Positions 28,306 to 46,545 of a DNA stretch of 64,000 bases are shown here, piece after piece (positions within the stretch are counted from its first letter, which is position 1; every line of letters begins with the position of its first letter). A program made the translations under genes and the position numbers. The stretch comes from a virus: positions 1-64,000 of the IMG/VR virus record IMGVR_UViG_3300048110_000147. The stretch is one strand, 5' to 3'. The notes under the pieces were generated by a model that did no database searches, was not told where the DNA came from, and worked only from the letters and a program-made list of their open reading frames with translations.

Positions 28306-28485
28306 TTAAAATTTATTTGGAAACACTCGTTTCAATACTGCGGCGGCATCCTTGCGCTTCTTTTTGCGGTCATGCTTTTTTCGTACGATTACAGTATCGG
28401 AATCTTCCCCTGTGCCTGCGACACCAGAAGTGTTGTTCGTTATCTCTTCTTGGAACTGCTTCATGAATTCTTTATATGTTTTCAT
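28306..28485 (-). CDS. small putative internal head protein (59 aa, not in ORF track)
   Basis: Starts MKTYKEFMKQFQEE (cf. T4 IP CTS MKTYQEFIAE); basic tail. Confidence 0.6.
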   Translation of the reverse strand: MKTYKEFMKQFQEEITNNTSGVAGTGEDSDTVIVRKKHDRKKKRKDAAAVLKRVFPNKF

Positions 28486-29075
28486 TTTCGTATCTCGTTT
28501 GATGAGAATAATATGCGTTTACCTGTGCGTAGGTGAGTACCCTCGAATACAGGTATACCTAGAATATCGTGACATAAATTGTCTTCGGTGACCCGTACTT
28601 GATCCCCTTTACGTACCATATCTTCTCCACCCGATAGTACAGAGTTTTCTGCCATACGGTACATACCTTGACCTAAGTTACCATTGTCCAGTACATACCA
28701 CTGAGAGTTTTCAAGTAGCACATCCATGATATCGACACCAGTCTCTTCATGAATCTTTTGAATCTGTTTATCAGACAGATCACCGTCTTCTTTGATTAGT
28801 GCAAGTGCAGCACCATACCGTGCGACAATAGAGGAACCGCCTGGGACCTTAGCCATAAGTTTCTTTAGATTAAACACGAGACGATGGAACGAGGTGTAGT
28901 GAGTACGGTATGCATCGCGCTTATCCATATCCCCCATGTCATAATCTTTGACTTTATTTCCGTCTGCATCGATGATCCCTGCCTTGAATGCACCAGTATC
29001 TTCTATCTTGGTGACCAGCAGTTTCAGAAAACGAATTGTATAGACTACATCTGCAGCCGACTTTAGGATGCCCAT
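28482..29075 (-). CDS. conserved T4-like hypothetical (late) protein
   Basis: YTIRFLKLL...AFKAGIID..G...FHRLVFNLK. Confidence 0.75.
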   Translation of the reverse strand: MGILKSAADVVYTIRFLKLLVTKIEDTGAFKAGIIDADGNKVKDYDMGDMDKRDAYRTHYTSFHRLVFNLKKLMAKVPGGSSIVARYGAALALIKEDGDLSDKQIQKIHEETGVDIMDVLLENSQWYVLDNGNLGQGMYRMAENSVLSGGEDMVRKGDQVRVTEDNLCHDILGIPVFEGTHLRTGKRILFSSNEIRK

Positions 29076-41636: not shown

Positions 41637-41701
41637 ATTATAACATCTTTTAGAAACGTTTGTCAAGGGCAAACGGTGACTATTTTTACGGTATTGGTCA
41701 A
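41637..41701 (-). promoter_or_regulatory. early promoter with upstream GTGACT-N14-GGTCAA palindrome
   Basis: TTGACA-N18-TATAAT; palindrome 9 bp upstream of -35. Confidence 0.7.
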
Positions 41702-41708
41702 ATAAGAA

Positions 41709-41894
41709 TCCCCACGAATACAGGGGCTCAAGTGAATGGTACTTCATGTGTCGGAGAACCGTAACTTGTGGGATTGAGGTCTCCCATCTGCTCTGGCATT
41801 TTTAACATGCACGTTGTGAGAGATCGCAGTTATCAAGTTAGTGCGCTTGGTGCGCATCGTTCTTCTCTAGTACCGAGCCCCCGTATTGTGGGGA
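41709..41894 (-). ncRNA. candidate structured ncRNA (~186 nt) 3' of tRNA-Ala
   Basis: ~20-bp closing stem UCCCCAC/AAUAC/GGGGGCUC plus nested helices; no good ORF. Confidence 0.65.
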
Positions 41895-41907
41895 AATTCG
41901 TGAAAAG

Positions 41908-41983
41908 TGGTGGAGCCGATAGGGATCGAACCTACGACCTATTCCGTGCAAGGGAATCGCTCTCCCAACTGAGCTACGGCCCC
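41908..41983 (-). tRNA. tRNA-Ala(UGC)
   Basis: Cloverleaf, ATTCC-CT-TGC-AC-GGAAT, CCA end. Confidence 0.95.
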
Positions 41984-41998
41984 ACAATTCTTACTAAA

Positions 41999-42148
41999 CT
42001 ACTTTTCCTTATTTATACTCTTTTCTTTCTTGACAGATTCCTCTGTCTTTTTGTCTTTACCGAAGATTTTATCCCAGTTATCTCTACCTTGTTTTGATAA
42101 CGTCTTAGACTGTATTGCGTCTCCGGTTATGTCGTTTCTACTTACCAT
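41999..42148 (-). CDS. small conserved phage protein
   Basis: RNDITGD.I.SK...NWDKIFGK. Confidence 0.55.
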   Translation of the reverse strand: MVSRNDITGDAIQSKTLSKQGRDNWDKIFGKDKKTEESVKKEKSINKEK

Positions 42149-42273: not shown

Positions 42274-42507
42274 TCAAACATTTTCAATCTGGCTCTTTAC
42301 CCAATCTAGTTCTTGAATGATTCTGTTATACCATGCGACATCAATTTCAGAATTGTTAGGATTGTTTGCTTCCATCCTAAGTTGTTCCATTCGTATGTCT
42401 ATGTAGTCACACCTTATAAATTCTTTTTTAGACACTCTATCTAAGAATGCTTTTTTCGCTAAGGTCAAGCATTCTACATTACTATTACTATTACTCATTG
42501 GACACAC
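42274..42507 (-). CDS. hypothetical protein
   Basis: DYI..RM.QL...WYNRIIQEL.WV. Confidence 0.55.
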   Translation of the reverse strand: MCPMSNSNSNVECLTLAKKAFLDRVSKKEFIRCDYIDIRMEQLRMEANNPNNSEIDVAWYNRIIQELDWVKSQIENV

Positions 42508-43913
42508 CCTAATTCTCTGCGCGAATCTTCGTCGTTGTTAGTTACACAGAGACCAGTAGGCAACTCTGTAGGTACATATCTCATCAAGTCTGGGTCATAT
42601 AAACTATTTTCTAAGAATGATACCAGATTAGATATCTCTTCCTCAGACAGATCTAGGGGAGTGAATCTATAGTCTATATCTATAAGATCTACATCTGGGT
42701 GTTGTGGTGTTGCCGCAACTTTGTATCGTACCACTTCTTCAACACTAGTGAATGATGCACCGTGACCGAATACTTCTGTGTCTGTCAGATTATATAGAGG
42801 CGGTACCTTAAATGCATACTTCTCCATATCGTCACCAGTAAAACCAGCGCGGCCTTCTCTAACACCTTCACCGACTTCACCGATGATATCGTCCCACATG
42901 TCTAGATCGTGGAATCCAAGTGTCATAAACACTTCACTTGCAAGAGAACCGACAGGAGATGAAAGAGCGGGACCGTTGTGACACGAGTGACAGTTACCTT
43001 TACCGAAGAACACTTTCGCGCCTTCGACTTCTTCTAAAGTCATCGCGTCTTCGTCACCACGTAAGAAGTCTTGAAATGGTGCTTGGTTTGCGAGAATGGT
43101 TCTCTCGTATGCGGCAATCGCAAAAGATGCTGCTTCTAACATATCATTAGGTTGTGAGGTACCGTATGCCGCTTCGAACATCATCCGATACTTCTCATTA
43201 GTAGTGAGCACAGAACCTTCTTCTACATTCATGCGATGTACACCTAGACCAGCAACTGCTTGAGTCTCTAGACCAGCAAGATTACGTAGGTTAGCCTCTT
43301 TAGGAGTGCCTTCAGTGAAGTGCCTTTCAGGGTCAATACCAATGTTAACTATACCTCCGATCACATTGCCGAACTGTCCGTTCCACAACATGACTTCTTG
43401 ATATGCAGTATTAAGTACTGTGGGTGATGTCACAGGTTGTACATCAACTGTTGAAGGGTCAACTCCAGCAGCAACTGTACGATGGTCAAACCCTACACCG
43501 CCTTCACCAATACCTTGACGAATACCGGACTTGAAACCATTCTGTCCGTTGTGACATGAAGCACAGGACCACGTGTTATCCATATCTGTCTGGTTGGTTT
43601 CAGTAGACGTGATTCCCGTCTCGTGATAAATGAACTTACCCAACTCTACTTTTTCAGCAGTAATAGGGTTACTTGGATCTTGAGGGATGTTTAGAAAGTC
43701 ATCACTCTCAGGTAAGATATACCCTTCGTAAGAACCTGTCGGGGATGTAGTACTCATCACAGTTTTTAGTTCTTCAACGGCAATCTCAAGTGCTGTTAAG
43801 GTAGGTGCTGGGGGTGGTGCGATGGTAACAGGTTCTGGTGCAGATTCTGAACCACCTCCAGAACATGCGCTAAGAACAGTAGTACATAATACTACGGATA
43901 ATAGTTGTTTCAT
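42495..43913 (-). CDS. di-heme cytochrome c peroxidase/MauG-family lipoprotein
   Basis: LSAC lipobox; NPIT.EKVELGK; CASCH and CHSCH; WNGQ; FKVPPL.N; FL..L. Confidence 0.9.
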   Translation of the reverse strand: MKQLLSVVLCTTVLSACSGGGSESAPEPVTIAPPPAPTLTALEIAVEELKTVMSTTSPTGSYEGYILPESDDFLNIPQDPSNPITAEKVELGKFIYHETGITSTETNQTDMDNTWSCASCHNGQNGFKSGIRQGIGEGGVGFDHRTVAAGVDPSTVDVQPVTSPTVLNTAYQEVMLWNGQFGNVIGGIVNIGIDPERHFTEGTPKEANLRNLAGLETQAVAGLGVHRMNVEEGSVLTTNEKYRMMFEAAYGTSQPNDMLEAASFAIAAYERTILANQAPFQDFLRGDEDAMTLEEVEGAKVFFGKGNCHSCHNGPALSSPVGSLASEVFMTLGFHDLDMWDDIIGEVGEGVREGRAGFTGDDMEKYAFKVPPLYNLTDTEVFGHGASFTSVEEVVRYKVAATPQHPDVDLIDIDYRFTPLDLSEEEISNLVSFLENSLYDPDLMRYVPTELPTGLCVTNNDEDSRRELGCVQ

Positions 43914-43943
43914 TGTTTCGATCTCTCACTTCTAATAATAAAA

Positions 43944-45999: not shown

Positions 46000-46168
46000 A
46001 GATTCTTCTTAAATATGTATGCTCGGTATCCGATGACTCCAAAACAAAAATGTCGCCTTCCTTGAATGAGGATATAGATAAATCTAATTTCTCCTCATCT
46101 TTGTTCAACAACTTGACCCCATTGATGTCTTCTTCGAATTTATAACCTAAGTAAAACATTGAACTCAC
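45977..46168 (-). CDS. hypothetical protein (3' end overlaps tRNA-Asp)
   Basis: 63 aa ORF. Confidence 0.45.
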   Translation of the reverse strand: MSSMFYLGYKFEEDINGVKLLNKDEEKLDLSISSFKEGDIFVLESSDTEHTYLRRIWSGSSVG

Positions 46169-46545
46169 GAGTTCTCCAAATCATGTACATGTAACTGGAT
46201 CAATGCATAATGGAGAACCTTCATTAGGTCTTTACGAGCATCATCCTCAGTACCTTTCTTACCATACCGTTGTGCATACTTCAACACGTTTCCAATACAA
46301 AACCCTGTACCATGACCACCGTCAACAATAAATTCAGTCGCCTGAAACTTGTCTTTGGCATAATGCTGATTGTATGTCGCATCGATATATTGTTTGAACT
46401 CATCAATCAACTTACCTTCACTAAACTTATAGTCCACAGTACTAATATCAGCAGCTTCTCGCATTGTTACACCGTTCGAGTATCTCTCAAACTCTACCGT
46501 CTCATTAGTATAAGGTGGAGTGTGTGCATAAATCGTTTTACTCAT
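46165..46545 (-). CDS. DUF3310-like protein
   Basis: HY...GFCIGNVLKYAQRYGKK...DLMK..HY. Confidence 0.8.
   Translation of the reverse strand: MSKTIYAHTPPYTNETVEFERYSNGVTMREAADISTVDYKFSEGKLIDEFKQYIDATYNQHYAKDKFQATEFIVDGGHGTGFCIGNVLKYAQRYGKKGTEDDARKDLMKVLHYALIQLHVHDLENS

Follow-up and report, generated by a model that had tools for sequence, protein, structure and literature searches.

A conserved structured RNA at the 3' end of a tRNA-containing transcription unit in marine T4-like phages: a possible riboregulator of early messages

That the tRNA clusters of phages harbour additional stable RNAs, none with an assigned function, has been clear since the T4 era. In T4 itself, the small stable RNAs RNA C (species 1, rnaC) and RNA D (species 2, rnaD) are encoded directly after the last tRNA and on the tRNA strand; their roles are still unassigned (PMC3014915). 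Other points of comparison are 6S RNA (RF00013), whose 5' and 3' ends are paired in a long stem and which has a large central bubble between two arms, and the T4 repressor RegA (PF01818), a protein that controls the translation of early messages at their ribosome-binding sites. Small RNAs are also cut from the 3' ends of longer transcripts, including the 3' trailers of tRNAs (e.g., 3'ETS-leuZ of E. coli), and small RNAs with C/U-rich loop seeds bind to Shine-Dalgarno regions.

Like RNA C and RNA D, with which it had been compared in a preliminary description of this DNA, the RNA described here is encoded at the 3' end of a tRNA cluster. It is located on the minus strand at positions 41709-41894 (186 nt), directly 3' of a tRNA-Ala(UGC), in a window of 64,000 nt (the whole stretch of DNA that was analysed) from a 96.9-kb IMG/VR viral contig with a G+C content of 42%. 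A search of the T4 tRNA region, including rnaC and rnaD, with the family model R1 and all filters off gave a best score of about 4-4.9 bits (E > 1), which is at the level of noise and reveals no homology. Moreover, T4 RNA C has a T-arm-like 3' hairpin, whereas the marine RNA has none and is instead closed by a 20-bp stem. From 5' to 3', the unit comprises the following features (window coordinates):

43914-43940, minus strand: leader of the CCP_MauG gene, with an 11-nt complement of the apical loop that ends 5 nt before the AUG
42495-43913, minus strand: gene of a di-haem CCP_MauG lipoprotein (Pfam CCP_MauG, 5e-23; lipobox-like N-terminus)
42010-42017, minus strand: TATAAATA box (T4-type late promoter consensus), ~26 nt 5' of the tRNA-Ala
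41908-41983, minus strand: tRNA-Ala(UGC), last of a ten-tRNA minus-strand cluster (ARAGORN; Rfam tRNA, 67.3 bits)
41895-41907, minus strand: single-stranded, A/U-rich spacer that separates the CCA of the tRNA from the RNA (read from the sequence), presumed to be a processing site
41709-41894, minus strand: structured RNA, 186 nt (fold and family model)
41875-41894, minus strand: 5' arm of P1, starting with UCCCC, pairs with 41709-41728
41869-41874, minus strand: 5' strand of P2, pairs with 41738-41743
41859-41863, minus strand: 5' strand of P3, pairs with 41755-41759 (4 of 5 pairs compensatory)
41842-41856, minus strand: P4 hairpin on the three-way junction, with a nearly invariant GCGC stem and a loop of 3-13 nt
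41834-41840, minus strand: 5' strand of P5, pairs with 41762-41768 (7 of 7 pairs compensatory)
41826-41829, minus strand: 5' strand of P6, pairs with 41788-41791 (4 of 4 pairs compensatory)
41811-41825, minus strand: invariant pyrimidine-rich apical loop with the core UCUCUCA, the proposed functional site
41795-41810, minus strand: P7 hairpin, with an invariant GCAU/AUGC stem and an A-rich loop of 6-9 nt
41769-41786, minus strand: P5a hairpin, an optional variable insert found in some subfamilies only
41709-41728, minus strand: 3' arm of P1, ending with GGGGA, the GC clamp of the terminator-like end
41700-41708, minus strand: U-rich tract after P1, terminator-like 3' end
41637-41666, minus strand: sigma70-type promoter with an extended TG (perfect at 12 of 12 positions), which drives the downstream PD-(D/E)XK exonuclease gene

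The minimum free energy of the 186-nt stretch is -69.8 kcal/mol, as compared with -45.4 ± 4.0 kcal/mol in 200 dinucleotide shuffles (z = -6.16), none of which folded as well. In this fold, a closing stem formed by P1, P2, and P3 opens into a three-way junction, from which a side hairpin branches off, and the rod formed by P5 and P6 continues to the apical loop beside a small hairpin. The coordinates, the strand, and the helices given in the preliminary description were borne out, and the same is true of the 13-nt gap between tRNA-Ala and RNA and of the position of the late-promoter box. The terminal stem of ~20 bp and the helices GGUAC/GUACC, AGAAC/GUUCU, UGCGC/GCGCA, UAACUUG/CAAGUUA, CUGC/GCAG, and GCAU/AUGC were also recovered in relatives; the helix UGGGA/UCCCA is present in the window but proved to be a variable insert that only some members have. 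All recovered helices show compensatory changes except GCAU/AUGC, which is invariant, and UGCGC/GCGCA, which is nearly so.

Relatives were gathered by scanning viral and metagenome contigs for the conserved core, from loci anchored on the downstream exonuclease gene, and with the covariance models R1 and R2, which were searched across all fetched loci. The resulting family comprises at least 41 distinct sequences of 144-189 nt from viral and marine metagenome contigs and falls into several subfamilies; in divergent members, nothing but the rod, the core loop, and the hairpin beside it is retained. Covariation among homologs, which the preliminary description had proposed as a check, is abundant. 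Standard pairs occupy 93.8% of the cells in the 48 modelled pairs of the 41 distinct rows, as compared with 79.8% after column shuffling and 30-49% with slid partners. Changes on both sides are present in 35 of the 48 pairs (291 cells), and the observed covariation score was reached by none of 500 shuffles.

The covarying helices are P1 (changes on both sides in 15 of 18 modelled pairs), P2 (3 of 5 pairs compensatory, 99% of cells paired), P3, P5, and P6. By contrast, P7 is constant throughout, as is, with few exceptions, the GCGC stem of P4; P4 is absent from the most divergent members. An analysis of mutual information for tertiary or pseudoknot covariation revealed nothing beyond the helices and the signal of the subfamilies. 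A pairing of the purines in J2/3 with the apical loop was rejected because it is not conserved in divergent members.

The family does not correspond to any known class of RNA in Rfam 15. Searches at the gathering score and at E ≤ 10 on 601 nt, another of the proposed checks, detected only tRNAs and sub-threshold noise in the window, the locus, and 12 relatives. A standard or permuted tmRNA was dismissed, since ARAGORN found none and the permuted-tmRNA hits are weak (15-22 bits; cut-off 47) and fall on the T arm and acceptor of an ordinary tRNA-Ala. The same applies to Y RNA/YrlA, whose sole weak hit (22 bits; cut-off 69) is on the neighbouring tRNAs and outside the element. Among about 185,000 cellular genomes, all 41 exact hits of the core were due to chance and none matched the model. 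The element is absent from the model cyanomyoviruses S-PM2, S-RSM4, and P-SSM3, and a blastn search of GenBank phages with three variants found Phage C48C1 as the only carrier. C48C1 has its homologous element, which folds with a z of -5.4, after its own tRNA-Ala.

There is also no indication that the element encodes a protein. The longest open reading frames in the family have 1-37 codons and differ in frame and strand, which agrees with the earlier observation that the locus has no convincing ORF; a coding function was rejected because no ORF is conserved across the family. For the same reason, the 31-aa hypothetical protein annotated within the RNA in the record of C48C1 (OQ984149.1, 59600-59695; L001:3170-3265) is probably spurious. 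The preliminary description of an unannotated, multi-branched, non-coding RNA that might represent a new class is thus upheld, and the element is almost certainly a real, conserved, and structured RNA gene of a new family.

The direction of transcription is evident from the alignment, where 78 G-U pairs are opposed by 39 A-C cells on the tRNA strand (12 of the latter being artefacts caused by truncated hits), and from the U tract, which is present on the tRNA strand only; both place the RNA on that strand. These observations also bear on the possibility of an element that acts at the level of DNA, such as an inverted-repeat recombination or homing site or an origin of replication. The plus strand of the same stretch folds well too (z = -4.7), and a duplication scar in one relative breaks the second copy exactly in the apical core, as might be expected of such a site. 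However, G-U pairs exceed A-C cells two- to threefold on the tRNA strand, the U tract and the promoter context are strand-specific, the nested helices covary independently, and there are no repeats or iterons, which renders a DNA-level element extremely improbable.

The size and the closed rod of the RNA had suggested a resemblance to 6S RNA. Both RNAs are of similar length, have their ends paired in a long stem, and may be linked to a switch in the transcription programme, but the architecture of the marine RNA is different. No match to the 6S model was obtained in the window or in 12 relatives, even at E ≤ 10, and the fold backed by covariation lacks the two long arms with a large central bubble: it is a rod that branches at a three-way junction and bears an invariant loop at its apex, and its largest internal loop measures about 5 x 11 nt. 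The 6S reading is therefore not supported. A possible role of the RNA in the early-to-late switch would involve RNA-RNA pairing and not the capture of RNA polymerase.

More generally, the RNA might act as a decoy or scaffold for a protein that recognises the invariant loop and the GCGC and GCAU stems on a long rod, with a 6S-like trap for the sigma70 holoenzyme as a special case. The invariance of the loop and of two stems that do not covary (P7 and, nearly so, P4) fits recognition by a protein, the length of 155-190 nt and the closed rod are reminiscent of 6S RNA, and a late promoter would suit a switch away from sigma70-dependent transcription. Set against this are the failure of the 6S searches, the apical position of the conserved sequence, the loss of P4 in divergent members, and a gene context that indicates no partner protein beyond the CCP_MauG gene. 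A protein-binding function is therefore unlikely, and its 6S-like version very improbable.

The association of the RNA with a tRNA holds throughout the family. In 39 of the 41 members, the RNA follows a tRNA-Ala(UGC) on the same strand; the tRNA is a tRNA-Asp in one member and a damaged tRNA-Ala in another, and the spacer between tRNA and RNA ranges from 3 to 22 nt across the family. In the divergent lineage (L231-L233; 1180-1423), the RNA is located after a tRNA-Asp(GUC), with a spacer of 22 nt, suggesting that the link is to the 3' end of a tRNA and not strictly to tRNA-Ala. At locus L033 (3860-3950), the upstream tRNA-Ala is short of about 5 nt in the T arm and goes undetected by ARAGORN, and the RNA is intact; this represents either an assembly error or a decaying tRNA.

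The best explanation is that the RNA gene is the last element of a tRNA-containing transcription unit of the phage and encodes a stable non-coding RNA. In 33 of 40 members, a box resembling the late promoter is found no more than 60 nt 5' of the tRNA, and its motif suggests a late timing of the RNA. The upstream region contains, in this order, a sigma70-like promoter (read by eye), a tRNA-Ser, the CCP_MauG gene, and two small ORFs. At the 3' end, a terminator scan identified a terminator-like site at 41725-41710 plus tail, and a GC-rich stem followed by a U tract on the transcribed strand, typical of intrinsic terminators, is present in 31 of the 41 members; the other 10 have no clear U-rich tail. 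The end of the unit is marked by the sigma70-type promoter of the exonuclease gene.

Transcript data come from contigs of RNA sequencing runs, whose depth and ends are weak evidence. The most informative is a single contig of low depth (3x) from an oligo-dT marine RNA library (run X15), which does not by itself prove a single molecule, a discrete species, or its ends; it has a length of 321 nt and spans positions 41686-41983 with 100% identity. Its 5' end coincides with nucleotide 1 of the tRNA and is preceded by 23 extra letters, which we take to be a SMART-type template-switch oligonucleotide that marks the 5' end of the RNA. The contig crosses the tRNA, the spacer, and the whole element and ends 23 nt beyond the U tract at a run of A in the genome, where priming was probably internal, so that termination at the U tract is at best partial. 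It fits a precursor that was already cut by RNase P and still carried the element, not a mature species. Runs X16, X18, and X20 contain relatives only (90-95% identity), on long contigs that reach across neighbouring genes and are silent on transcript ends. The DNA runs in which the stretch was encountered come from marine, seawater, and viral metagenomes.

The same features could reflect nothing more than the end of an operon acting in cis, i.e., an elaborate terminator with 3' protection. Such a structure would shield the tRNA/CCP unit from the early exonuclease promoter, lend stability to the tRNA precursor, and lack any role in trans. The GC clamp and the U tract are on the strand of the RNA, which lies exactly between two transcription units, and in some loci a different gene follows straight after the U tract. 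A terminator, however, requires neither 120-150 nt of covarying internal helices nor an invariant apical loop; moreover, the X15 contig reads through the U tract, and a clear tail is lacking in the 10 members mentioned above. Such a purely cis-acting role is thus decidedly unlikely.

The RNA seems to belong to an accessory module of the phage genomes. Of 80 loci anchored on the exonuclease gene, 33 have both the RNA and the CCP_MauG gene and 43 have neither, and the CCP_MauG gene never occurs alone; in the remaining four, the RNA occurs alone, and the flank is too short or interrupted. The RNA is absent from relatives without a tRNA beside the exonuclease gene, the loci that lack the RNA being equally devoid of tRNAs in their vicinity, and both RNA and CCP_MauG gene are absent from two complete relatives with only 1-2 tRNAs. 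This pattern of co-presence and co-absence indicates that CCP_MauG gene, tRNA-Ala, and RNA act as one accessory module. The gene of the CCP_MauG peroxidase represents phage cargo.

The carriers of this module show hallmarks of T4-like phages. The window contains 12 TATAAATA boxes, as compared with 3.8 expected, 11 of which are on the minus strand, and the contig encodes a homologue of RegA. The nearest GenBank phage is C48C1, which is filed under Kyanoviridae and whose exonuclease is 73% identical; the exonucleases of true cyanomyoviruses are only about 41% identical. psbA (PF00124) is absent from five genomes of the clade (G000, G006, C48C1, G003, and G004), for which reason an identity as cyanophages was rejected and the host is probably not a cyanobacterium. 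Despite the filing of C48C1, the clade is therefore probably a non-cyanobacterial marine lineage of T4-like phages. All five genomes possess regA (PF01818). The possibility that the RNA replaces RegA was rejected because regA is present in relatives with and without the RNA, which implies that the RNA is an addition to RegA.

The apical loop UCUCUCAA is pyrimidine-rich and invariant across subfamilies with diverged stems, and its mean unpaired probability is about 0.5-0.64, providing the conserved and accessible single-stranded seed expected of a base-pairing small RNA. A mimicry of an anticodon loop by the adjacent P7 hairpin was discounted because the length of its loop varies from 6 to 9 nt.

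Potential partners of the loop were sought among all leaders of six genomes that carry a family member; two of these genomes are complete or almost so, the others being partial contigs. The CCP_MauG leader ranked first of 140 in the genome of the window (G000), with an uninterrupted run of 11 pairs that stops 5 nt short of the AUG (z = -4.5), first of 116 in G008, first of 36 in G007, and third of 189 in C48C1, all of which are related genomes, so that these ranks are not independent; in G006 and G010, it is a poor partner. At least 7 contiguous complementary nucleotides, located 2-11 nt before the AUG, are present in 21 of 30 distinct pairs of loop and leader, and the summed complementary run is 221 as compared with 154 ± 5.7 for shuffled loops. 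In the commonest type of leader, the complement lies within the loop of a small hairpin. The other nine of the 30 leader variants, which include those from the lineage of the 151-kb relative G006 and from the tRNA-Asp lineage, have a complementarity of 6 nt or less. The complementary runs of cognate and non-cognate pairs are similar (7.37 vs 7.17 nt; permutation p = 0.14), i.e., complementarity is conserved without covariation. An 8-nt match to a conserved coding gene located 4-5 kb downstream was attributed to protein-coding constraint and dismissed as a target.

The complementary motif is not restricted to the CCP_MauG leader. Among the 65,536 possible 8-mers, TTGAGAGA shares rank 8 in the regions before the start codons of three genomes, in the company of promoter and Shine-Dalgarno words. 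Leaders with the motif are enriched in sigma70-type promoters (9 of 45 vs 59 of 965; p = 0.002, related genomes pooled). The motif also occurs in relatives that lack the RNA and may therefore be a mere variant of the ribosome-binding site that matches any CU-rich loop.

The RNA might also be directed against the host and not against phage messages, either as a repressor of host mRNAs with an anti-Shine-Dalgarno-like seed or as a sponge for a host small RNA. Such an RNA would use the same exposed CU-rich loop, and the lack of lineage specificity in the complementarity to phage leaders and the presence of the motif in relatives without the RNA are points in its favour. By contrast, no copy or look-alike of the element was encountered in the cellular genomes, which is nevertheless silent on targets. 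A host-directed function appears improbable.

The reading that we favour, with a probability of roughly 40%, is that of a riboregulator that is released by tRNA processing and pairs with the ribosome-binding regions of early messages. The RNA would be co-transcribed with tRNA-Ala from the TATAAATA late promoter, with read-through from the early tRNA-Ser/CCP promoter as a second source. Processing of the tRNA 3' end at the A/U-rich spacer, where cleavage is presumed, would free the 5' end of the RNA, and the P1 stem and U tract would set and protect its 3' end. The exposed loop UCUCUCAA could then pair with ribosome-binding regions rich in purines (UUGAGAG[A/G]). The location of the complement in a hairpin loop of the CCP_MauG leader would permit a loop-loop kiss, and a class of genes with early promoters, whose short leaders contain the same motif, may represent further partners. 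The pairing would alter the translation or stability of these messages during infection, in either direction.

Such a riboregulator would share with the small RNAs from tRNA trailers and those with C/U-rich seeds its location at the 3' end of an operon, the use of the operon's terminator, a probably processed 5' end, and a pyrimidine-rich loop complementary to ribosome-binding regions. It would differ from them in being much larger, more structured, and encoded by a phage, and its targets are candidates only. With RegA, it would have in common the proposed outcome, namely translational control of early messages at their ribosome-binding sites, but RegA is a protein. It is tempting, if rather doubtful, to regard the RNA as the first trans-acting riboregulator of a T4-type phage, which is boosted late in infection, uses its invariant loop to kiss the ribosome-binding hairpins of a regulon of early messages, including that of the haem peroxidase, and, together with RegA, contributes to the early-to-late switch through translation.

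With its defined fold, abundant covariation, and a single invariant loop, the family offers a tractable case for the old question of the extra RNAs in phage tRNA clusters. It comes with a concrete candidate target, whose complementary site is located in a leader hairpin, with natural relatives that possess or lack the module, and with a carrier, C48C1, that has a complete-genome record in GenBank (no host is named there). The family further lends itself well to a new Rfam entry, and it corrects the record of C48C1 with respect to the probably spurious 31-aa CDS.

Several minor observations concern the leaders and the RNA itself. The UUGAGAGA early leaders are candidate partners of the loop besides the CCP_MauG leader. 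The word (A)AUUGAGAGA recurs 4-10 nt before the starts of genes such as those at 28482-29075 and 46165-46545 (both minus strand), which have early promoters, and pairs poorly with the canonical anti-Shine-Dalgarno sequence; many genes share the start context UAUAUUAUG. Each arm of P1 (41710-41725 and 41878-41893, minus strand) is self-complementary, consisting of a C run, a spacer, and a G run. Two local hairpins, the 3' one being the pick of the terminator scan, could thus replace the long-range P1 stem, and a co-transcriptional folding switch is possible.

The duplication scar mentioned above is located at L222:1021-1500, on the contig of L003/G006. Its first part comprises the RNA in full length, the promoter, and the exonuclease gene up to about nucleotide 60, followed by an inserted unit that consists of a TTGACT-N17-TATAAT promoter of its own, a folded stretch of ~100 nt, and a strong hairpin with a U-run terminator; this unit looks like a small RNA gene. 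After the insert follow the second copy of the RNA, of which only the 3' half is present, and an intact promoter with the exonuclease gene.
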